Positions 1,596 to 59,297 of a DNA stretch of 64,000 nucleotides are shown here, piece after piece. Under the pieces are notes generated by a model that saw only the letters and a program-made list of their open reading frames with translations, had not been told where the DNA came from and ran no database searches. The stretch spans positions 654-64,653 of the forward strand of contig JAJDZM010000093.1 of NCBI GenBank assembly GCA_022824615.1. The letters are read 5' to 3'. A program made the position numbers and the translations under genes. This DNA comes from Candidatus Binatia bacterium (GTDB lineage Bacteria; Desulfobacterota; Binatia; Bin18). Position 1 is the first letter of the stretch. Every line of letters starts with the position of its first letter.

Positions 1596-1600
1596 AAAAA

Positions 1601-1686
1601 GGGTCTGGGGGTTGGGAATTGGGGCGTGGGGAAGCCCAACCTCTAACCCCCAGCCCCCAATCCCTAACCCCCAATCCCCTCCTCCC
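1601..1686. repeat. G-run / C-run imperfect palindrome filling the whole intergenic gap (G4 / long hairpin potential)
   Basis: GGGTCTGGGGGTTGGGAATTGGGGCGTGGGG ... CCCCAGCCCCCAATCCCTAACCCCCAATCCCC. The left arm is G-runs and the right arm is their near reverse complement. Confidence 0.6.
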
Positions 1687-3122: not shown

Positions 3123-4172
3123 ATGGTTCAGGAAGACATCTCGCTCATTAACCTGCCGAATCTTATTGGTTTTCTGCGTGACAGGCTCTCCCTGACGGAG
3201 GGCGACATCAGGATTGAACGGCACGAAGCCGGCTATTCAAACGAAACGTTTTTTGTCTCCTGGGGAGACAAACGCTGGGTGCTGCGGCGTCCGCCGAGCG
3301 GGGATCTCCTGCCGACCGCCCACGATATGCTGCGCGAATACCGGGTGCTGTCGGCCCTGTCCGGCTTTGATGTGCGGACTCCACAGCCGGTGCTTGCGTG
3401 TGAAGATCGGGACGTTCTCGGCGTTCCTTTTTATCTGATGCAGCGGGTGGACGGTATCGTGATCCGCGAAACGCTCCCGGAAGTTTTTGCCGCCCAGGAA
3501 GAACGCCAACGACTCGGAGAAGAATTAATCGACGCCCTCGCTGAGCTCCACGCCGTGCAATGGCAGGGTACGGACCTGGAAGGCATTGGCCGGCCGCAGG
3601 GCTATCTTGAACGCCAACTCAAACGCTGGACCAAACAGTACGAGCTGACCGTGCCGCATACTCGGCCATTGCCCGGACTCGAAGCAGTCGGCGACTGGCT
3701 GCACCGGCGGCTGCCGCCGGCGAGTGAAGCGACAGTTGTCCACGGCGACTATAAAGTTGATAACGTGATGTTTGGGGTGTCCACTCCGACCCGCTTAGTT
3801 GCCATATTCGACTGGGAAATGGCGACCCTGGGCGACCCGCTGACCGACCTGGGTTGGCTGCTCAGCTTCTGGGGGCCTACCGGGGATGAGCGAGACACCC
3901 CGGACCTGATTGACAGCAATGTCATGACCCAGTTGCCGGGCTTTTTATCCCGCGAAGAGATGGCCGCGCGCTATGCCGAGCGCACCGGCCGGACCATGGA
4001 ACACTTTCCCTTTTATCGCTGCTTAGCGGTTTGGAAGTACGCCATCATTCTGGAGGGCCTGTATCGGCACTATCTCGAAGGAACCGCGGCCAATCCGAAG
4101 GCCGCCGAGTTTGCGTGGAAGGTCCCCCAGCTCGTGCAGCGCGCCCAGCGGATTATGGTCGAGGCGGGCTGA
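3123..4172 (+). CDS. phosphotransferase enzyme family protein (APH-like kinase)
   Basis: HGDYKVDNVMF catalytic loop, DWE motif (IFDWEMATLGDP), overall APH/aminoglycoside-phosphotransferase fold signature. ATG at 3123 follows gagggg RBS. Confidence 0.8.
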   Translation: MVQEDISLINLPNLIGFLRDRLSLTEGDIRIERHEAGYSNETFFVSWGDKRWVLRRPPSGDLLPTAHDMLREYRVLSALSGFDVRTPQPVLACEDRDVLGVPFYLMQRVDGIVIRETLPEVFAAQEERQRLGEELIDALAELHAVQWQGTDLEGIGRPQGYLERQLKRWTKQYELTVPHTRPLPGLEAVGDWLHRRLPPASEATVVHGDYKVDNVMFGVSTPTRLVAIFDWEMATLGDPLTDLGWLLSFWGPTGDERDTPDLIDSNVMTQLPGFLSREEMAARYAERTGRTMEHFPFYRCLAVWKYAIILEGLYRHYLEGTAANPKAAEFAWKVPQLVQRAQRIMVEAG

Positions 4173-4277: not shown

Positions 4278-4565
4278 ATGGCGTTGTATGAATTCATGCT
4301 GAATCAATGCGTTCTCGGCTTGTTGTTGGGCCTATTGTTCCTTCCCGGTCCGTTGTGGGCGGTGGAAGTGGCCCCGGTCCTGACCGACCGAGCGATTGCG
4401 GACAGCCTGACCCGGCTGGAAGAAGGACAGCGTGCGGTGCGGACCGAGGTTAGCCAACTCCGCGGGGATATGAACCGGCAGAATCAGCACCTGTGGGACG
4501 ACATCAACGCTCAGTCCAACCGTCAGTTTCGGCTCGAAAACGTTCGCATTGTCCGCTTTGAGTAG
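4278..4565 (+). CDS. small secreted hypothetical protein (signal peptide, coiled-coil-like)
   Basis: 95 aa ORF. Hydrophobic N-terminus LGLLLGLLFLPGPLWA. No recognisable family. Confidence 0.4.
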   Translation: MALYEFMLNQCVLGLLLGLLFLPGPLWAVEVAPVLTDRAIADSLTRLEEGQRAVRTEVSQLRGDMNRQNQHLWDDINAQSNRQFRLENVRIVRFE

Positions 4566-4579
4566 TTGGGTGCAGGTGA

Positions 4580-5356
4580 TTGATGGCTCTATGCCATTCC
4601 AGAGCACCGCCTGTCTTTCTGTTTCATGCCTGTGTGCTCTCTCTTTCGGCTGCCGCCTGTAGCGTCGTCCAGGCTCAGCCACAACGACCGCTCACGATTC
4701 CAGTGAAGCCAGCCAGTTCTCAGCCGTCAGCCTCAGTGCAGCCCTTACCGGCGCGGGCAGAAATTCGCCGTGACCCGCGACTGGGAACAATCACTTTTTT
4801 GAAGGCCCCGAATCTTTCCGAGCACCTGGAGCACGACCCGGATTTTGCCCAACTGCAAGCGAGCAAGCAATTTGGAGACTTGGCTCGTGCGTTCGTTCAC
4901 GCCTACCGAGCCGATTTCCGACTCGCTCAGCCCACCAACGAGTTCCGAGTACACTCAGTCAAGACCGACGCTCTGGGGCTGACCCACGTCCGTCTGCAAC
5001 AGACCTTTCATGATGTCCCTGTCTGGGCGGCCGAGGTGGTTGTGCACCTGAACGCCGACACCCAAGTCTACCTCATCCAGGGGCGCTATATTCCAACTCC
5101 GCACAATTTGTCTACCGACCCGGAGCTAACAGAACAGACGGCGTTACAGCGGGCTGTGGACCACCTTGGGCAACCTCTCACTGGGTGTCTCAAATGCCAG
5201 GCTGACCTCGTGATTTTTACGACGGAAGGCAAAGCCCCACGTCTGGCCTATCGCGTCCTGGCCTTGCTGAATTTAGCGGAAGGGTGGGAGGTAATGATTG
5301 ATGCCTGGACGGGCGAGATCCTGCAACAACTGTCCACCATACGCACCACGCAATAA
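4580..5356 (+). CDS. stand-alone M4-protease propeptide-like protein (FTP + PepSY domains), secreted
   Basis: Signal peptide. Clear similarity to the propeptide region of the downstream M4 protease (e.g. ...AELIVHLD.../...AEVVVHLN..., PRLAYRV / PRLAWKL, VMIDAWTGEIL / VVIDAINGDEL). It ends before any catalytic domain. Confidence 0.6.
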   Translation: MMALCHSRAPPVFLFHACVLSLSAAACSVVQAQPQRPLTIPVKPASSQPSASVQPLPARAEIRRDPRLGTITFLKAPNLSEHLEHDPDFAQLQASKQFGDLARAFVHAYRADFRLAQPTNEFRVHSVKTDALGLTHVRLQQTFHDVPVWAAEVVVHLNADTQVYLIQGRYIPTPHNLSTDPELTEQTALQRAVDHLGQPLTGCLKCQADLVIFTTEGKAPRLAYRVLALLNLAEGWEVMIDAWTGEILQQLSTIRTTQ

Positions 5357-12427: not shown

Positions 12428-13792
12428 ATGAGTGATGCGCCTGCCAGGCTGGAAGAATACGCACCAGAATCAATCCTGACGATTGACGAATACGAGCCCT
12501 ATATCGGCCAGGAAGGGGTCGATGCGCTCAAGCAGCTTGCCGCTCCCGTTGAAGGGAAAGGCTGGGCAAATATCAACTCGACCTTTGTGGGCGGTGGGGT
12601 GGCGGAGATGCTGCGGAGTGTGATTCCGCTTGCCCGCTCACTCGGTGTTCACGCCCGCTGGTTTACCATCCAGGGCCATGAGGCGTTTTTTCATGTCACC
12701 AAGAAGTTTCACAACACGCTCCAGGGCGTAGACCAGCCGATTTCTCTTCAGGAACTGTTTGAAACCTATTTGGATAATCTGGCCGCCCACGCTCAAAATG
12801 CCGCAATAGAATCTGATCTGATTGTTGTCCACGATCCCCAACCTGCGGCGCTGATTATGAGTGGCCTGCTCATGGGCAATGTGCTGTGGCGGTGCCATAT
12901 TGACACGTCAACGCCGAACCCGACGGTGTGGCGTTTCCTGGCCCCCTACCTCAACCAGTATGCGGGTGCGATTTTTACCATGCCCGAGTTTGTCGGACCG
13001 GGATTACAGATTCCCCAATACCAGATTACGCCGTGCATAGACCCGCGGGTGGAAAAAAATCAGCAGTATACCGAAACCCGTGCCAAAGAGGTGCTCGCCC
13101 CACTGTTCCGGCAGCATGTGATCGACCCCGACCGTCCGATTCTCGCTGCCATTTCACGCTATGATATCCATAAAAATCAGGCGTCTATCCTGAGTGCTTT
13201 CAAACGCCTGCGTCAGCACAAGACCTATGACCCGATGCCCTATCTCATCTTTCTGGGCAACACCGCAACCGATGACCCGGAGGGTGAGGCCATGCTGGAG
13301 CAACTGCAAGCGCAAGCCGGCGCTGACCCTGATATCCGTTTCTGGGTCAATGTTGAAAACAACGATCAGGTCGTCGGTTCGCTGATGCGTCTGGCCCGGG
13401 GCTTCGTCCATATCTCAACCCGCGAAGGCTTTGGCCTGGTCGTGTCCGAGGCGTTGTGGCAGGGAACCCCGGTTATTGGCTCGCGTGTCGGGGGGATTGT
13501 GCAACAAGTCATTGACGGGCAGACGGGTTATCTGGTTGAACCCATGGACGTTGAGGCAATTGCAACGAAAATGGCCCGGATTCTTGATGAGCCAGAGCAA
13601 ACGGCACGACTCGGCCGGCAGGCTCAGGAACATGTGCGTCAAAATTTTCTGCTACCGGAATTGGTTCGGCGCTATCTGATCCTGCTCCGCTATTACACCG
13701 GAGTTGACCGAGACCACCCGACGTTTCGCCTGAACCCAACCAGCTATCACGAGGTGCTGGCCAGCCTTCTACCAATACCCGCCGACTTGTGA
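12428..13792 (+). CDS. GT4-family glycosyltransferase (trehalose-synthase/TreT-like architecture)
   Basis: C-terminal GT4 core (ISTREGFGLVVSEALWQGTPVIGSRVGGI, E-x7-E). Long N-terminal domain as in TreT / glucosyl-glycerate-synthase-like enzymes. Confidence 0.75.
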   Translation: MSDAPARLEEYAPESILTIDEYEPYIGQEGVDALKQLAAPVEGKGWANINSTFVGGGVAEMLRSVIPLARSLGVHARWFTIQGHEAFFHVTKKFHNTLQGVDQPISLQELFETYLDNLAAHAQNAAIESDLIVVHDPQPAALIMSGLLMGNVLWRCHIDTSTPNPTVWRFLAPYLNQYAGAIFTMPEFVGPGLQIPQYQITPCIDPRVEKNQQYTETRAKEVLAPLFRQHVIDPDRPILAAISRYDIHKNQASILSAFKRLRQHKTYDPMPYLIFLGNTATDDPEGEAMLEQLQAQAGADPDIRFWVNVENNDQVVGSLMRLARGFVHISTREGFGLVVSEALWQGTPVIGSRVGGIVQQVIDGQTGYLVEPMDVEAIATKMARILDEPEQTARLGRQAQEHVRQNFLLPELVRRYLILLRYYTGVDRDHPTFRLNPTSYHEVLASLLPIPADL

Positions 13793-13905
13793 GTCCGTTG
13801 AGTCTATGGAGTCTCTTGGGTCCTTTGAGTCCTTGACTCAACAGACGCTATAGACCCAACAGACCCCATTGACCCTATTGACTCAATAGACTCCATAGAC
13901 ATAGG
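13791..13905. repeat. palindromic array of 9-bp units (5 x GRGTCYNTK forward, then about 7 units in reverse orientation ...NAGAC(C/T)C...) filling the GT4-rfbB intergenic region
   Basis: GAGTCCGTT GAGTCTATG GAGTCTCTT GGGTCCTTT GAGTCCTTG | ACTCAACAG ACGCTATAG ACCCAACAG ACCCCATTG ACCCTATTG ACTCAATAG ACTCCATAG AC. Same unit family as the array at 54215. Confidence 0.85.
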
Positions 13906-13916
13906 CATGAGCACGT

Positions 13917-15017
13917 ATGGAGACCATGTTGATCACTGGCGGGGCAGGGTTTATCGGGAGCAATCTGGTTCGCCTCGCCCTGGCCGAAACAACGGCCTCT
14001 GTCATCATCGTTGATAAGTTGACGTATGCCGGCAGTCTGAACAATCTTGAAGACGTCCTCCACAATCCGCGTGTGACCTTTTCCCGGACCGATATCACCG
14101 AGCAGACGGCGGTGGCGGAATTATTCCGGACGTATCGGCCTCAGGCCGTGGTGAACTGCGCCGCGGAGACCCATGTGGACCGTTCCATTGACAATCCCTG
14201 GCCGTTTGTTGAAACGAATCTGCTTGGAACATTTTATTTGCTGGAGGAGGCCCGAAAATATGCGGCTTCCCCGTCCGTCCAGGGACAGTTCCGCTTTTTG
14301 CACGTCTCGACAGACGAAGTATACGGCAGCCTTGGGCCGCTGGGCCGCTTTTCCGAATCCAGCCCATACGCGCCGAATTCGCCGTATTCCGCCTCAAAGG
14401 CGAGCGCCGATCATTTTGCCCGCGCCTATTACGAGACGTATGGTCTGCACACGCTGATCACGAGTTGTTCCAATAATTATGGCCCCTATCAGTTTCCGGA
14501 AAAACTCATCCCGCTGATGATTCTGAACGCCCTTGAGGGCAAATCCCTTCCAATCTACGGCGATGGACAACACGTCCGTGACTGGCTGTACGTTGAAGAC
14601 CACTGTCGGGGCATCTTGCTTGTTTTGCGGCAGGGCAAGAGTGGCGAACAATATCATATCGGGGGGGGAAATGAGCGGACCAATCGTGCGGTTGTGGAGC
14701 AGGTCTGTACCATTCTTGAGGCACTGCTACCGGCCTCAAAAAATGCGGCTCTTAAGCAGCGAGGCATTCCAGCCTACTCCGAGCTGATGACCTTTGTGAC
14801 CGATCGTCCCGGCCATGATCGACGCTATGCCATCGACGCCACAAAAATCAGAACCCAGCTCGGTTGGCGGCCACGCTACACGTTCGAGCGTGGCCTGGCA
14901 CAGACGATCCGTTGGTATGTGGACAATCGGCGGTGGTGTGAAGCTATTGAGGCGGACAGGTATAACCGCGAGCGTCTGGGGTTAGGTGCTGCGCCTCTGA
15001 CAAAGGATAGATCATGA
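13917..15017 (+). CDS. rfbB: dTDP-glucose 4,6-dehydratase
   Basis: TGGAGFIGS Rossmann motif, YSASKA catalytic motif, full-length similarity to RfbB. Confidence 0.9.
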
Positions 15018-15889
15018 AAGGCATTATCCTCGCCGGTGGCTCCGGGACACGGCTGTATCCCATTACCCGGGCAGTCAGCAAGCAGCTCATGCCCATCTAC
15101 GACAAGCCGATGATCTATTACCCGCTCTCTACGCTGATGCTGGCGGGGATTCGTCAGGTTCTGGTCATTACCACCCCGCATGAGCAGAAGGGCTTCCAGC
15201 GTCTCCTGAAAGACGGTCGGTGGCTTGGTATGGATATTAGCTATGCGACGCAACCTCGTCCCGAGGGCATTGCTCAGGCCTTTCTGATTGGCCGTGATTT
15301 CATCGGCGGTGACGCGGTTGCGCTTGTTCTCGGGGATAACATCTTCTATGGCCACGGCTTTCCGGACTCGCTGCGTGTCGCGACCCAGCAGACGAGTGGG
15401 GCGACCATTTTTGCCTATCAAGTCCGCAACCCTGAACAGTACGGGGTCGTGGAATTCGACACTCAAGGACGGGCCATCGGTCTTGAAGAGAAACCGGCCA
15501 AACCGCGCTCAAGCTACGCGGTCACCGGTCTCTATTTCTATGACAATCAGATTGTCTCTATTGCCGCAGACCTCAGGCCCTCACACCGGGGCGAATTGGA
15601 AATTACGGATGTGAATCGGGCCTATCTCCGCCTGGGAGGTCTGCATGTGGAAAAACTTGGTCGAGGCATCGCCTGGTTGGATACCGGAACCCATGAATCA
15701 CTGCTTCACGCCTCGAATTTTATTCAGGCCCTGCAAGACCGGCAGGGCCTGATGGTCGCCTGTGTCGAAGAAATTGCCTACACCATGGGGTATATTTCTG
15801 AAACGGAAGTGCTCCAGCAGGCTAAGAGCATGAAGGGCAATGCCTACGGCCAATATCTGCTCCGTTTGATTCAGCATGAATCCTCATGA
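15014..15889 (+). CDS. rfbA: glucose-1-phosphate thymidylyltransferase
   Basis: [18 protein letters not shown]...[18 protein letters not shown] canonical RfbA N-terminus. Overlaps rfbB stop by 4 nt (operon). Confidence 0.9.
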
Positions 15890-16470
15890 AGAGAGCAGAC
15901 ATGCACTTTCTCCCGACCAGACTCCCAGGTGTGACGGTGGTTGAACCGGACGTGTACCACGATGCCCGCGGCTTCTTCCTCGAAACCTACCACGCCCGTA
16001 CCTATAGAGAGGGAGGGATCAAGGCGACTTTTGTTCAGGATAACCATTCTCAATCATCGTGCGGCACGCTCCGCGGGCTCCACGCCCAGATGCAGCATCC
16101 TCAAGGAAAGCTGATACGAGCCTTGGAGGGTGAAATTTTTGACGTGGCGGTGGATATTCGACGAGGCTCAGCAACCTTTGCCCAATGGACAAGCGTTATC
16201 CTTTCGGCAAAAAATTTTCGTCAGCTCTATATTCCACCCGGTTTTGCCCACGGCTTTGCTGTCCTGAGTGAACGCGCTCAAATTGTCTATAAGTGTACGG
16301 ATTTTTACGACCCGAATGATAAAATTTGCTTGGCCTGGAATGATCCAGACATTGGCATTGAGTGGCCGCTGAAGACGCCGCTGCTCTCAGCAAAGGACTC
16401 GTCCGCGCCACTCCTTCGGGACATTGAGGCATCCTTACCCCTCTTTCAGCCAGAGCCAGAAACGGACTGA
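15886..16470 (+). CDS. rfbC: dTDP-4-dehydrorhamnose 3,5-epimerase
   Basis: RGLHAQ motif, cupin fold signature. Translationally coupled to rfbA. Confidence 0.9.
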
Positions 16471-53650: not shown

Positions 53651-53883
53651 AGCGTTTCACGATAAGTTGGAGCCATGCCAGTCCGCGCTCGTCGGGAAGG
53701 ACAAGGGCCTGTCCCAAACGGCCTGGGAGGGCGCACTCCTCTAGGACGTGTGATGCAGATTAACTGGTCCGGTACCGGACCGGCTGCCCATCCTTCTCCT
53801 TCGCCCCTATGGGACTCCGCTCAGCACGAACGGAGGTCCCGGCGCAGGCCGGGCAACCACAAGGGTTGCCCCTACCATATACA

Positions 53884-53921
53884 TTCCCTCTCCCCTGGAG
53901 GGAGAGGGCTAGGGTGAGGGG
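53884..53921. repeat. REP-like hairpin element, copy 2
   Basis: CCCTCTCCCCT-ggag-GGGAGAGGG-ctAGGGTGAGGGGG. Compare 3077-3115. Confidence 0.7.
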
Positions 53922-54016: not shown

Positions 54017-54214
54017 TCAGGACGGGGTTTGTGAGGGAATTTGTCCCGAGGATTTGCTCCGGGAGCGCTTCACAACAACAACATTCTGGCCGTTGACGCG
54101 AACGGTGCGTTTATCTGCGGTGGGAGAAGACTGCTGGACCGGCTTGCGGCCACGCTCTTCTCGCCACCGTTTGAGTTGTTGTTCCAGGTCTTTCGAATTC
54201 ACTCGTTCCTCCAA
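54017..54214 (-). CDS. small basic hypothetical protein
   Basis: 65-aa Lys/Arg-rich ORF starting right after the 9-bp repeat array. Weak. Confidence 0.2.
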   Translation of the reverse strand: MEERVNSKDLEQQLKRWREERGRKPVQQSSPTADKRTVRVNGQNVVVVKRSRSKSSGQIPSQTPS

Positions 54215-54304
54215 TTGGGTCTATGGGGTCTGTTGGGTCTATGGGGTCTGTTGGGTCTGTTGGGTCTGTTGGGTCTGTTGGGCCGGACTCAAGGGACTCA
54301 ATGT
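54215..54304. repeat. tandem array of eight 9-bp units (TTGGGTCTR/TGGGGTCTG) followed by two reverse-type units (GACTCAAGG GACTCAATG), directly after the rpoD stop codon
   Basis: TTGGGTCTA TGGGGTCTG TTGGGTCTA TGGGGTCTG TTGGGTCTG x3 TTGGGCCGG. Same unit family as 13791-13905. Confidence 0.85.
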
Positions 54305-57300: not shown

Positions 57301-58029
57301 ATGAAGATTTTCTCTTCTCTTCTCTTCTCTTCTCTTCTCTTCTCTTCTCTTCTCTTCTCTTCTCTGAGCGCGTGTAGCAGCGCCACAGTCGGAAGAGAAG
57401 CGTTGAACCCGGCCCAACAGCAGATGTTGGACCGTGGTCTGGAAGTGTCGTCCGTCGCCGTCAAAACCGGCCAGCCCATTGCTGCGGGACGGATGTATGA
57501 ACGCCTGTCCACCTCCTTCCCGAGCGCCCCGGAACCGAAACTCGGGCTCGCCTATATGGCCCTGCACGCGGGCGACTTTGCGACCGCCGATGCCCTGTTC
57601 ACCGAAGCCAGTACACTGGCGACGCGACCGGCCCTCAAGGCCGAGGCCCTGCTCGGTGCCGGGCGGGCGAGTCTGGGGCGAGAAGACTTCGCCGCGGCCA
57701 AGACCCACTTCCTCGCCGCGGCCGAACCAGCCCAAGGCTCGCCTGTCGAGTCCTGGGTCATGAACGGTCTGGCGGTCGTGGCCGCGCTCGAAGGCGATTA
57801 CCCCCTGGCCGAGCAACACTACAGAGCAGCGCTGACAGTGGCGTCGCATCCGCTCATCACGGCCAACCTGATGCGGACACTCGTCGAGGCGGGCCGCATA
57901 GACGAAGCCCGCCAACTCCATGCCAGCCACAGCGCCACCTACTGGGCGGAAGGCGACAGGGCCGAGTTGTCACAACTGCTCAAAAACAGCACCACACGCG
58001 GGACGGAGCAAACGCCGGTCACTGAGTGA
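57301..58029 (+). CDS. TPR-like (Ala-rich helical repeat) lipoprotein whose signal peptide is encoded by a pentanucleotide repeat
   Basis: MKIFSSLLFSSLLFSSLLFSSLSAC with lipobox LSAC. Downstream TPR-like helices (GLAYMALHAGDFATADALF...). Confidence 0.6.
   Translation: MKIFSSLLFSSLLFSSLLFSSLSACSSATVGREALNPAQQQMLDRGLEVSSVAVKTGQPIAAGRMYERLSTSFPSAPEPKLGLAYMALHAGDFATADALFTEASTLATRPALKAEALLGAGRASLGREDFAAAKTHFLAAAEPAQGSPVESWVMNGLAVVAALEGDYPLAEQHYRAALTVASHPLITANLMRTLVEAGRIDEARQLHASHSATYWAEGDRAELSQLLKNSTTRGTEQTPVTE
57310..57364 (+). repeat. (TTCTC)11 perfect pentanucleotide microsatellite inside the 5' coding region
   Basis: 55 bp perfect repeat starting 9 nt after the ATG. It encodes (SSLLF)n in frame. 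Confidence 0.95.
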
Positions 58030-58037
58030 GGAAAGGT

Positions 58038-59297
58038 ATGATGCATACAAGGCAAACGACCCCCAAGCCGTCTCACCGCCTACTGCGGGCGTTCGGCCTC
58101 AGTCTGGCACTCAGCCTCGGGTCCGCCGAATATGGAGCAGCGGCAGAGCCGATCAAGCCGCTCCCGGTCATGATTGAGGTGAACGAAGCCAAAGCCGAAC
58201 TCGGCAGGCTGCTGTTCCACGAACCGAGATTGTCCAAGAACGACACCATCTCCTGCGCCACCTGCCACGACCTGAGCGCCGGTGGGGATGACGGACAGGT
58301 CGTGTCCACCGGCATTGAGGGCCGGACCGGGCTCGTGAACGCGCCCACCGTGTTCAACTCCGCCTACAATTTCAAGCAGTTCTGGGACGGCCGGGCACAT
58401 ACCCTCAAAGAGCAGGTTGACGGCCCGCTCCAGAGCCGCATCGAGATGGAAAGCATCTGGCCCGATGTCGTGACCAAACTCTTTCAGGATAAAGACTATC
58501 CCCGCATGTTTCAGCAGGCCTATCCCAATGATTCTCAGATTATTTCTCGCGAGAACATCAAAGATGCCATTGCCGAGTTCCAGCGTTCCCTGATCACGCC
58601 CAACAGTCGTTTCGACCAATGGCTCAGAGGCAACGTTGGAGCCATCAACGAACAGGAGAAAGAGGGCTACGCCTTGTTCAAGCGCTACGGCTGTGTGTCC
58701 TGCCATCAAGGGGCCAATGTCGGCGGCAATATGTTCCAGGTCTTTGGGGTCATTAACGACTATTTCAGAAAGCGGGGCAATATCACCGACGCCGACCTGG
58801 GACGCTTCAACGTGACCGGAAACGAGGTCGACAAACACGCCTTCAAGGTCCCCAGCCTGCGCATGGCCGCTCATACCGCCCCCTATCTGCACGACGGCAG
58901 CGCCGGGACCCTGCGCGACGCGGTCGATGCCATGTTCGAGTTCCAGCTCGGACGAGAAGCCCCGGACGAAGACAAAGAGGCTATCGTGGCCTTCATCAAG
59001 ACGCTGGCAGGAGAGTATCGAGAAAGCAATTACCGCTTTGACCTTGGAGAGAGCCCGCTGTCTGCCGAGTTCCAGGAAGACAGTCGCAACGGACACCTCG
59101 GGCAGAGTCCCGCGCCGAACGGCCTCCAAGAAATCTCTGTGGTAGAGACCGTTGAGGGGAGTCCTCCCGCGGACATCGCCGAAACCATTTCCCAAAACGG
59201 CAAGGCCCCCCCGCTCCGTACGGGTCGAGCCGCCAAACCCGCCGCCGAAAGCGAAGCAGCCGGACGTTCGGGGCGTTCGGGGCGTTCGGGACGATAA
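58038..59297 (+). CDS. di-haem cytochrome c peroxidase (CCP/MauG family), paralogue of 36402-37378
   Basis: CATCHDLS and CVSCHQG haem sites, FKVPSLRM, PYLHDGSAGTLRDAVD, DKEAIVAFIKTL (identical block in the paralogue). C-terminal tail ends in GRSGRSGRSGR (9-bp x3 repeat). Confidence 0.85.
   Translation: MMHTRQTTPKPSHRLLRAFGLSLALSLGSAEYGAAAEPIKPLPVMIEVNEAKAELGRLLFHEPRLSKNDTISCATCHDLSAGGDDGQVVSTGIEGRTGLVNAPTVFNSAYNFKQFWDGRAHTLKEQVDGPLQSRIEMESIWPDVVTKLFQDKDYPRMFQQAYPNDSQIISRENIKDAIAEFQRSLITPNSRFDQWLRGNVGAINEQEKEGYALFKRYGCVSCHQGANVGGNMFQVFGVINDYFRKRGNITDADLGRFNVTGNEVDKHAFKVPSLRMAAHTAPYLHDGSAGTLRDAVDAMFEFQLGREAPDEDKEAIVAFIKTLAGEYRESNYRFDLGESPLSAEFQEDSRNGHLGQSPAPNGLQEISVVETVEGSPPADIAETISQNGKAPPLRTGRAAKPAAESEAAGRSGRSGRSGR

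Follow-up and report, generated by a model that had tools for sequence, protein, structure and literature searches.

Paired sets of short tandem repeats between genes have been described in Geobacter metallireducens, where 3-5 tandem units of 7-9 nt form opposite-strand pairs at 8-24 intergenic places, including the proB-proA spacer (Aklujkar et al. 2009, PMC2700814). These sites, of which classes 1-3 read GTTGCTYN x4, TCTCCGTS[Y] x3 and MTYCTGA x5, are species-specific, a sister species having a different sequence in its proB-proA spacer, and the paired sets were interpreted as sites for global regulators (PMC2700814). Long simple sequence repeats (LSSR) of prokaryotes, with units of 5-11 nt, are sporadically distributed and supposed to arise by polymerase slippage according to the summary of Mrazek et al. 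2007 in PMC4679880. Heptamer direct repeats (STRR-type; TAACTGA) are found in cyanobacteria and Beggiatoaceae; in Nostoc, GAC(C/T)AAT x8 abuts the recO start, and a post-transcriptional role is suspected but unproven (PMC4679880; bioRxiv 10.1101/2022.06.06.494920).

The array studied here lies between the gene of a GT4 glycosyltransferase and rfbB. The window, i.e. the whole 64-kb stretch of DNA that was analysed, holds no rRNA or tRNA; the features relevant to the array are the following.

1598..1686, + strand: sister palindrome of 7-bp units, a GGGGTTG-type arm and then a CCCYAAC-type arm
12428..13792, + strand: TreT-like GT4 glycosyltransferase gene, upstream (ORF list; Pfam TreT_GT1 and Glycos_transf_1)
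13791..13831, + strand: forward arm made up of five 9-bp units, each with a GRGTC core (GAGTCCGTT, GAGTCTATG, GAGTCTCTT, GGGTCCTTT, GAGTC)
13832..13834, + strand: palindrome centre CTT, the loop of the predicted hairpin
13835..13906, + strand: reverse arm made up of eight 9-bp units, core GACYC, of which the final two are degenerate
13917..15017, + strand: rfbB (dTDP-glucose 4,6-dehydratase), downstream
15014-15889: rfbA, after rfbB
15886-16470: rfbC, after rfbA
54213..54303, - strand: second array of the same unit family, after rpoD, about 40 kb from the GT4-rfbB array

Like the G. metallireducens sites, the array brings two opposite-strand sets of 7-9-nt units to one intergenic place (five plus eight units here). 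The unit sequences differ, however, the arms abut here whereas the Geobacter pairs lie a variable distance apart, and the arrays here are longer (5+8 units) with a strain-variable unit number. With LSSR as summarised in PMC4679880 the array shares a head-to-tail unit, here of 9 nt, a length far beyond chance and a sporadic phylogenetic distribution. Unlike LSSR, it consists of two opposite arrays fused as a palindrome in a fixed arm order, its units are unevenly conserved and its copies fill whole intercistronic spacers. The cyanobacterial and Beggiatoaceae heptamers are likewise short intergenic tandem units directly before starts, and Nostoc GACYAAT resembles the reverse unit GACYCAAYA, but they measure 7 nt rather than 9, are usually single-orientation and belong to different phyla.

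Better-known repeats are more distant. REP/BIME elements of enterobacteria are dispersed, strain-variable intercistronic palindromes, transcribed as stem-loops able to protect upstream mRNA; each REP is one imperfect palindrome of ~35 nt with a GTAG head, and REPs are linked to RAYT transposases. Dispersal in operon gaps and variable presence are shared, but a REP/REPIN identity was rejected, as the array is built of tandem 9-nt units and has no GTAG head. Iterons are conserved repeats of ~17-22 bp that belong to replication origins, where a rep gene and an AT-rich region adjoin them. The array resembles them as a set of direct short repeats with potential for cooperative protein binding; iteron length, origin context and conservation do not apply, given a unit of 9 bp, flanks of GT4/rfbB and rpoD, and absence from L121-L124, L249 and L250. 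Drosophila fold-back (FB) transposons are eukaryotic, kilobase-scale elements with defined termini. Their inverted arms of short tandem sub-repeats, varying in length between copies, recall the array, for which mobility would be hypothetical.

The GT4-rfbB region is indeed an imperfect palindrome that could form a hairpin or cruciform, as the first-pass annotation had proposed. Forward GRGTC cores start at 13791, 13800, 13809, 13818 and 13827 and reverse GAC motifs run from 13835 to 13898, with an exact 9-nt step in each arm and an 8-nt step across the centre, as a palindrome requires. The reverse units read, in order, GACTCAACA GACGCTATA GACCCAACA GACCCCATT GACCCTATT GACTCAATA GACTCCATA GACATAGGC; six of the eight have a GACYC core, one has GACGC and the final, degenerate unit has GACAT. 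Then follow ATGAGCACGT and the rfbB ATG at 13917. The array spans 13790-13906, beginning at the TGA stop of the GT4 gene and ending 10 nt short of the rfbB ATG. The earlier description was right about five forward units and about the beginning at the GT4 stop; it had counted seven reverse units instead of eight and had placed the end about 12 nt before rfbB.

TRF returned a period of 9 plus higher-order periods of 18 and 27 nt, and unit matches of 73-82% characterise the repeats as imperfect. The phased triplet GRGTC-N4-GRGTC-N4-GRGTC occurred 11 times in the 64-kb window versus 0.00 in 100 shuffles, and all 11 matches fell in this array or in the array at 54217-54275; the pentamer GRGTC alone was not enriched in the window (321 observed vs 315 ± 16 expected). 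The array thus has the attributes of an LSSR, a head-to-tail unit within 1-11 nt and a length above the chance expectation. Its arms are complementary at 72-80% in several registers, so that no single register is preferred. On the sense strand the reverse arm is rich in C and A (C/G ratio 2.1). An independent assembly (L001) contained the identical array sequence.

Relatives have no array at the orthologous GT4-rfbB spacer (L121, L122, L123, L124, L249, L250). The flanks are core genes in conserved synteny with the relatives, and in L121, L249 and L250 they are 88-93% nucleotide-identical to the window. A conserved spacer unlike the array is common to 4-5 relatives (L121, L122, L249, L250 and L124 being those named), and the L123 spacer is 24 nt long. 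In the window, the GT4 TGA stop (13790-13792) overlaps the first repeat unit, the final ~6 GT4 codons are unlike those of relatives, and similarity picks up again at GAGCACGTATG (13909), ahead of rfbB. By sequence comparison, the GT4-rfbB copy is confined to its own strain's lineage and has taken the place of a ~118-nt ancestral spacer kept by relatives. The array had been suggested to sit where the rfbBAC promoter is expected, and the relatives' conserved spacer indeed carries TGAACA..TAGAAT, read by eye as a possible promoter. Promoter, terminator and Rfam scans of this ancestral spacer gave no match, the 15-nt gap of TGAACA..TAGAAT being outside the promoter scan rule. Since the spacer conserved in relatives is lost here, rfbBAC may have come to rely on read-through out of the GT4 gene. 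On sequence reading rfbB has no obvious Shine-Dalgarno sequence.

The second array of the window follows rpoD. On the minus (transcribed) strand it reads stop TAA, CAT, two TGAGTCC units, seven CAGACCCAA/TAGACCCCA units and then TTGGAGGAACGAGTG, with which a small conserved ORF sets in (its Shine-Dalgarno sequence and start). Most units of this array are GGGTC, and the C/G ratio of its reverse arm on the sense strand is 4.1 (arms measured over 68-72 nt). Among strains with RpoD 94-96% identical, this array was present, shortened or cleanly missing: the site is empty in L725 (TAA followed directly by ATTGGAGG) and 11 nt long in L723/L724; L125 carries seven reverse units there, to which the window adds two forward ones, and window and L125 agree exactly in the last three units. 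The rpoD copy is thus an insertion/deletion polymorphism of near relatives, sharply bordered and varying by strain in the number and composition of its units. The nearest RpoD relatives that carry a name, at ~68-70% identity, are MAGs with the label Binatia or Deltaproteobacteria.

The unit family is dispersed, with at least two copies in the 64-kb window and further ones in other genomes and metagenomes. In another MAG (L043), a LivH-type permease gene is preceded by arrays of 12 and ~24 of the same units. When genome contigs were scanned with a loose pattern (five GRGTC at 9-nt steps), the matches listed were mostly actinomycete coding repeats and useful loci were few (L043, L058); the metagenome scan yielded at least 120 loci with array units. 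Fold-back 9-mer arrays were also present in unrelated metagenome contigs, e.g. between sucC and sucD. A literature search for the 9-mers themselves matched primers only.

A fold-back copy typically takes up the whole spacer between two genes of the same direction, and the order of its arms is fixed. Among the matches listed, GRGTC stood 5' of GACYC in 15 loci vs 1 in the opposite order (p = 5e-4), and fold-backs with at least 4 units per arm were in GRGTC-then-GACYC order by 10 vs 0. Eight of nine hand-read fold-backs sit between co-directional ORFs, with flanks identified by Pfam as sucC/sucD, pgsA-like/cinA, PGM/CofD, FolD, TPP enzyme and amidohydrolase; the co-directional context (~10 of 11 fold-backs) is not clearly over the genomic background for gene pairs. 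Reverse units outnumber forward ones on the sense strand in 8 of the 11. Single-orientation arrays had no significant polarity to neighbouring start or stop codons (10 vs 6, p = 0.45; 9 vs 12), and a cruder longest-ORF tally gave 25 vs 15.

The family thus has two copies within 64 kb and others in L043 and in metagenomes, while relatives lack one at the orthologous GT4-rfbB spacer, and the reading as an iteron-like array or a locus-specific rfb control element is not supported. Dispersal of the units and absence from close relatives were largely the outcomes that the first-pass annotation itself had named as speaking against it.

Within the unit G-R-G-T-C-n-n-T-n, positions 1, 3, 4, 5 and 8 are nearly invariant and positions 6, 7 and 9 are free to vary; changes affected 1 of 52 core cells vs 19 of 39 linker cells (p = 6e-8). 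Such uneven conservation, as read from the units, points to sequence-specific recognition or to a sequence-dependent generating mechanism. The near-invariant positions leave room for the cooperative binding array that had been suggested. It had also been claimed that all units face the same side of the helix. At 10.5 bp/turn, each 9-bp unit is rotated by -51 degrees (-257 degrees over five units), and the units are therefore not on one helix face. Neither is GANTC a feature of the unit: it occurs in only 7 of the 13 GT4-rfbB units and in 2 of ~10 units of the rpoD array, and a CcrM-type GANTC cluster was rejected on these counts.

RNA folding of the GT4-rfbB array gave z = -4.2 on either strand. 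The sense RNA has a predicted fold of -42 to -48 kcal/mol with the start region unpaired. Antisense RNA folds better in 7 of 11 nonamer fold-backs, the GT4-rfbB array included (-50.4 vs -42.3). As the sense strand has no folding advantage, the G-U wobble signature of RNA-structure selection is missing, and selection at the RNA level was rejected on this comparison. Folding of the rpoD array on its sense strand gives almost no structure (-9.6 kcal/mol), which means that the two copies of the window do not share a hairpin.

Scans for known signals were negative. Sigma-70 promoters (-35/-10, 16-18-nt spacer) had 0 sites in the array, the TTGAC inside units lacking a suitably spaced -10; terminators had 0 sites in 13600-14100, where the stem has no T run after it; and Rfam gave no match at gathering score in the window, only sub-threshold miRNA-hairpin noise (E = 0.009-0.57). 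Integron attC sites have RYYYAAC 5' and GTTRRRY 3' in a cassette array beside an integrase. Here GTTGGGT and ACCCAAC occur the other way round and the array is flanked by core genes whose synteny is conserved, which led to rejection of attC. PleI/N.BstNBI-type nicking 4 nt past GAGTC gives exactly 9 nt, and a GAGTC+N4 nickase was considered as the generator of the 9-mers. Among viral contigs, GRGTC arrays with 8 or more phased units had period 6 in 106 cases, 7 in 34, 8 in 25, 9 in 92, 10 in 13 and 12 in at least 120, and noncoding-like arrays of these periods numbered 25, 15, 16, 19, 9 and at least 32, respectively; since period 9 is not special and the rpoD units are mostly GGGTC, the nickase idea is unsupported. 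A G-quadruplex is not shared by both arrays either: in the rpoD array, the plus strand has TTGGGTCTG x7, which a loose G3N6 motif would match, but the GT4-rfbB array has at most three consecutive G3 runs.

With moderate confidence, we read the array as one copy of a dispersed, fast-turnover family of short tandem repeats and not as a conserved rfb control site. The family belongs by its sequence with the long simple sequence repeats of 5-11-nt units, and its arrays are often in fold-back form. Replication slippage or unequal exchange would make and resize such arrays, an origin that the 18- and 27-nt higher-order periods fit. The array would be transcribed together with its flanking genes, and any effect probably acts via the intercistronic mRNA. 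This RNA may form a long imperfect stem with its base at the upstream stop and its 3' side reaching to within 10-20 nt of the following start. An insert that folds back in this manner would hold stop and start near in space and leave the start region unpaired, which would explain its tolerance inside operons. The effect on rfbBAC would then be generic, the hairpin serving as a processing or stability barrier and not as a dedicated switch, with an additional effect from loss of whatever signals the ancestral spacer may have held. Against plain slippage with neutral decay counts the uneven conservation of core and linker, which these do not predict; replacement of a conserved spacer and clean presence or absence at TAA/ATTGG count against slippage alone.

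The conserved core G-GTC--T with variable linkers makes a sequence-specific binding factor possible: the array could be a row of sites for a DNA- or RNA-binding factor (a nucleoid or global regulator, or an RNA-binding protein) reading this core every 9 nt, the arms being inverted site sets. The fixed arm order of fold-backs and the L043 units, differing mainly at positions 2 and 6, agree with such reading, as do the interpretation of the paired inverted sets of G. metallireducens as global-regulator sites (PMC2700814) and the altered reporter expression caused by Nostoc heptamer repeats beside start codons (10.1101/2022.06.06.494920). We nevertheless regard it as rather unlikely, for the array is not kept at orthologous sites of relatives at ~90% nucleotide identity, the unit number is free (0 to 9 at the rpoD site), 9-bp spacing turns the sites around the helix, copies lie at unrelated housekeeping junctions (rpoD, sucCD, folD) and there is no candidate protein. 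A non-autonomous, MITE-like mobile fold-back element, with arms of tandem sub-repeats as terminal repeats and its enzyme encoded elsewhere, would account for the clean empty and filled sites at rpoD, for an occupancy there that is decoupled from RpoD similarity (a 96% relative without the array, a 94% relative with it), for the replacement of the whole GT4-rfbB spacer and for an outward-to-inward arm orientation as fixed as in terminal inverted repeats. It is improbable, however, given arms of unequal and variable length, no target-site duplication or constant ends, many single-orientation arrays (L125, L043), an ancestral spacer that is missing and not split, and no transposase gene nearby in the window.

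The reverse arm, C-rich and G-poor, might instead act as an unstructured mRNA tract, either loading Rho as an intercistronic attenuator or serving as ribosome standby or enhancer before weak starts, with the forward arm masking it by pairing. Its C/G ratio of 2.1, and 4.1 in the rpoD array, over 68-72 nt, the lack of an obvious Shine-Dalgarno sequence in front of rfbB and, in L125 and L043, sense-strand units of reverse type that adjoin the start would suit this reading. The excess of reverse units among fold-backs (8 vs 3) is not significant, though, nor is the polarity of single-orientation arrays to starts, and we consider such a tract very improbable. Simple repeats upstream of surface-polysaccharide genes are a classic layout of phase variation (for background, PMC4679880), so that gain and loss of 9-bp units might switch or tune transcription or translation of rfbBAC, and hence a surface rhamnose-containing polysaccharide; the strain-dependent unit number at rpoD and a TTCTC tract at the 5' end of another gene of the window are in keeping with a contingency locus. 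We hold this to be the least probable of the readings, because units matching at only 73-82% suppress slippage, two independent assemblies contain the same array, the array has no promoter-like hexamers and sister copies follow rpoD or separate sucC from sucD, sites at which switching would make little sense.

Returning to the repeat-family reading, the tempting view is removed that the array is a conserved rfb operator or an iteron-like site. Short-unit palindromes recur between co-directional genes in several uncultured lineages, their arm order fixed, their borders exact and their presence subject to gain and loss among strains, a pattern without accepted mechanism, and one similar to it was mentioned only in passing in the Geobacter genome paper. 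At stake is whether slippage produces them as neutral sequence that folds out of the way, or whether they constitute a real operon-internal control layer. In the latter direction, and as a distinctly unlikely extension, fold-back 9-nt arrays, with their invariant G-GTC--T core and their arms always ordered GRGTC 5' and GACYC 3', may be a distinct, widespread class of intercistronic elements in uncultured bacteria, precisely installed and removed between a stop and the next ribosome-binding site by a sequence-specific process and read by a dedicated DNA or mRNA factor that sets the relative expression of the neighbours (sucC/sucD, rpoD and the small downstream ORF, GT4/rfbBAC).

The window contains other repeats as well. 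The sister palindrome of 7-bp units fills the spacer from a CoA-transferase stop to a helicase ATG, and L121, L122 and L124 have differing unit numbers at this site. A separate REP-like family of GTAGGGGC type is also present. Finally, a gene for a putative exported protein contains a perfect TTCTC x11 tract within its 5' end.

The gap between the GT4 glycosyltransferase gene and rfbB is filled by an array of 9-nt units arranged as a palindrome, in which a forward arm of units with a GRGTC core is followed by a reverse arm of units with a GACYC core.

12428-13792: GT4 glycosyltransferase gene, TreT-like, 454 aa (Pfam TreT_GT1 and Glycos_transf_1)
13790-13906: array including the GT4 stop TGA; five GRGTC 9-nt units, a CTT centre, eight GACYC 9-nt units

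The step is exactly 9 nt within each arm, TRF returned period 9 plus higher-order periods of 18 and 27 nt, and complementarity between the arms is 72-80% in several registers. Phased unit triplets occurred 11 times in the window vs none in 100 shuffles, all of them within this array or a second one at rpoD, and the pentamer GRGTC alone was found at chance frequency. As RNA, either strand of the array folds strongly (z = -4.2). The palindrome described in the first-pass annotation is therefore confirmed, including its five forward units; for the reverse arm eight units were counted instead of seven, the final two being degenerate. Between the array end and the rfbB ATG (13917) lies ATGAGCACGT, and the genes that follow are rfbB, rfbA, rfbC and an undecaprenyl-diphosphatase gene.

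Protein homologues of GT4 were found in a graded series, several of them on megabase contigs, and synteny around GT4-rfbBAC is kept in the relatives. The array is absent from the orthologous spacer of five relatives (L121, L122, L249, L250, L124). All five carry a common spacer, about 100-125 nt long, in which a pair of hairpins and a TGAACA..TA(G/C)AAT stretch are conserved; in L123 the spacer is just 24 nt long. The ancestral spacer was located as follows.

L121, 11366-11491
L249, 4366-4491
L250, 4366-4492
L124, 11396-11494

An invariant CTGTGAACA...GTCTA(G/C)AAT stretch runs through it across relatives. No Rfam family matched the spacer and it did not pass a simple promoter scan; it may represent the true control region of rfbBAC, which the window strain has lost. 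In L121, L249 and L250 the flanking genes share 88-93% nucleotide identity with the window. Homology is lost about six codons ahead of the GT4 stop and picks up again at GAGCACGTATG, and an independent assembly (L001) is identical to the window across the array. Judged by these alignments, the array is peculiar to the lineage of the window strain, where it recently replaced a conserved spacer. Since near relatives carry no array here, its reading as an rfb-specific control element is not supported.

Nor is the array unique to the rfb locus, as a second one lies downstream of rpoD, the gene of a 607-aa primary sigma factor. The state of this site in the window and in the compared contigs was as follows.

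Window, 54213-54303, minus (transcribed) strand: second nonamer array, from the rpoD stop to a small conserved ORF; two forward and seven reverse units
L125, 4046-4110: RpoD identity 94%; seven reverse-type units, no forward units
L725, about 4325-4345: RpoD identity 94%; empty, TAA followed directly by ATTGGAGGAACGAGTG (junction TAA/ATTGGAGG)
L723 (about 1983-2000) and L724: RpoD identity 96%; 11 nt (GTAGTAGAGTA)
L126 and L128: RpoD identity 88% and 86%; unrelated short spacers

On the minus strand the window reads rpoD TAA, CAT, two TGAGTCC units, seven CAGACCCAA/TAGACCCCA units and then TTGGAGGAACGAGTG, the start of a small ORF present in all relatives. The window and L125 agree in their final three units, and their arrays are therefore of common origin; presence or absence of an array does not track RpoD similarity. 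The borders are exact, with no target duplication evident in the compared relatives. The small ORF itself (54017-54214, minus strand), immediately 3' of rpoD, encodes a lysine/arginine-rich product of 57-65 aa and is conserved in L125, L126, L128, L723 and L725.

A pattern search also found a MAG contig (L043) with TTGRGTCYG arrays of 12 and about 24 units upstream of the gene for a branched-chain amino-acid permease, and a metagenome scan with three-and-a-half reverse-type units as the pattern returned at least 120 loci. Among the genome and metagenome matches listed, about half of the arrays look coding, for instance as Asp-Pro-Thr linkers or as the C-terminal tail IESIESIES on FolD (L248), and many of the non-coding arrays are fold-backs. 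In the same matches the GRGTC arm stood 5' of the GACYC arm at 15 loci vs 1 (p = 5e-4), or 10 vs 0 with at least four units in both arms; this order is the same on either strand and is thus a real structural constant. Eight of the nine fold-backs read by hand fill a gap between co-directional ORFs. Flanking genes were confirmed by Pfam as follows.

L221, 3737-3865, about 130 nt: between sucC and sucD
L058: CDP-alcohol phosphatidyltransferase gene, then cinA
L189: phosphoglucomutase gene, then CofD-family gene
L248, L145 and L205: upstream genes folD, a TPP enzyme gene and an amidohydrolase gene, respectively

The genes sucC and sucD normally lie very close together in one operon. Arrays can also overlap the 3' end of the preceding gene and add repetitive tails to its product, as in FolD (...IESIESIES; L248 9137-9252) and a phosphoglucomutase-family protein (...IESMRPKGP; L189 2294-2388).

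Altogether, the array is best explained as a dispersed, rapidly turning-over short-period repeat of the long simple sequence repeat (LSSR) class, with a tendency to form fold-backs in intercistronic gaps. The fold-back geometry would bring the stop codon of the upstream gene and the start codon of the downstream gene together at the base of a single stem, leaving the start region free, and could in this way make inserts tolerable inside operons. The fixed arm order puts the C/A-rich arm, which is free of Shine-Dalgarno-like or start-like motifs, next to the downstream start, whichever strand carries the genes; this may explain the 15-to-1 bias. The reverse arm is C-rich and G-poor (C/G 2.1 in the rfbB-side array, 4.1 in the rpoD array), and in 8 of 11 fold-backs the sense strand has more reverse than forward units. 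Polarity of single-orientation arrays towards starts was not significant (10 vs 6).

An iteron-like or cooperative protein-binding array, or a cruciform-forming element at the presumed rfbBAC promoter, had been proposed, with all units on one helix face and GANTC sites in the units. A 9-bp unit turns by -51 degrees and five units by -257 degrees, so the units do not share a face, and GANTC occurs in 7 of 13 units of the rfbB-side array and in two of the rpoD array. No promoter-like or terminator-like site and no Rfam match was found in the array. For 7 of the 11 nonamer fold-backs, the rfbB-side array included, the antisense strand folds better as RNA, and a wobble-pair signature of selection on the RNA fold is thus lacking; the sense strand of the rpoD array is nearly unstructured, and the hairpin is thus not common to both window copies. 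Within units, positions 1, 3, 4 and 5 changed in 1 of 52 cells and positions 6, 7 and 9 in 19 of 39 (p = 6e-8), an unevenness not predicted by neutral decay of a slipped repeat. Because this core invariance, the arrival of arrays at new sites and the replacement of a conserved spacer are left unexplained by the LSSR account, a binding-site array and a mobile, MITE-like fold-back element both stay in contention as less likely alternatives. As a source of the 9-nt period, a GAGTC+4 cutting geometry was rejected: non-coding GRGTC arrays in viral contigs are about equally common at periods 6 to 12.

The LSSR class, with units of 5-11 nt, and heptamer repeats abutting start codons have been described (PMC4679880), and in Nostoc eight GAC(C/T)AAT units touching the recO start had reporter effects (preprint, 10.1101/2022.06.06.494920). 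The nearest parallel comes from the genome paper on Geobacter metallireducens (PMC2700814), which lists paired opposite-strand sites of 3-5 tandem 7-9-nt units each, one pair lying between proB and proA; they are absent from the sister species, and the authors guessed at global-regulator sites. The present array is a longer, strain-variable version of this pattern in which the arms abut.

Other repeats were seen in the window and its relatives.

1598-1686: palindrome of 7-nt units, GGGGTTG-type arm then CCCYAAC-type arm, filling the CoA-transferase/helicase gene gap
L121 4399-4473, L122 about 4410-4475 and L124 4492-4561: the same palindrome in relatives
57310-57365: perfect TTCTC x11.2 tract inside the 5' end of ORF 57301-58029

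The position of the 7-nt palindrome is conserved, with different numbers of units from one relative to the next; in L123 there are no heptamers but a G-rich/C-rich hairpin. ORF 57301-58029 (N-terminus MKIFSSLLFSSLLFSSLLF...) has a TPR-like homologue in L125, an orthologue from which the tract is missing. Slippage of the 5-nt unit shifts the reading frame, which makes this ORF a candidate phase-variable gene. REP-like hairpins beginning GTAGGGGC (window about 53700-53900; L725 about 4640-4670, for example GTAGGGGCAATTCATGAATTGCCCCTAC; L043 about 3340-3400 and 3660-3680) are a separate dispersed repeat family of the same lineage. Finally, a coding 9-nt repeat (CGTTCGGGG x2.9, 59265-59290) yields the GRSGRSGRSGR C-terminal tail of ORF 58026-59297, by our own reading a putative di-haem cytochrome c peroxidase-like protein.
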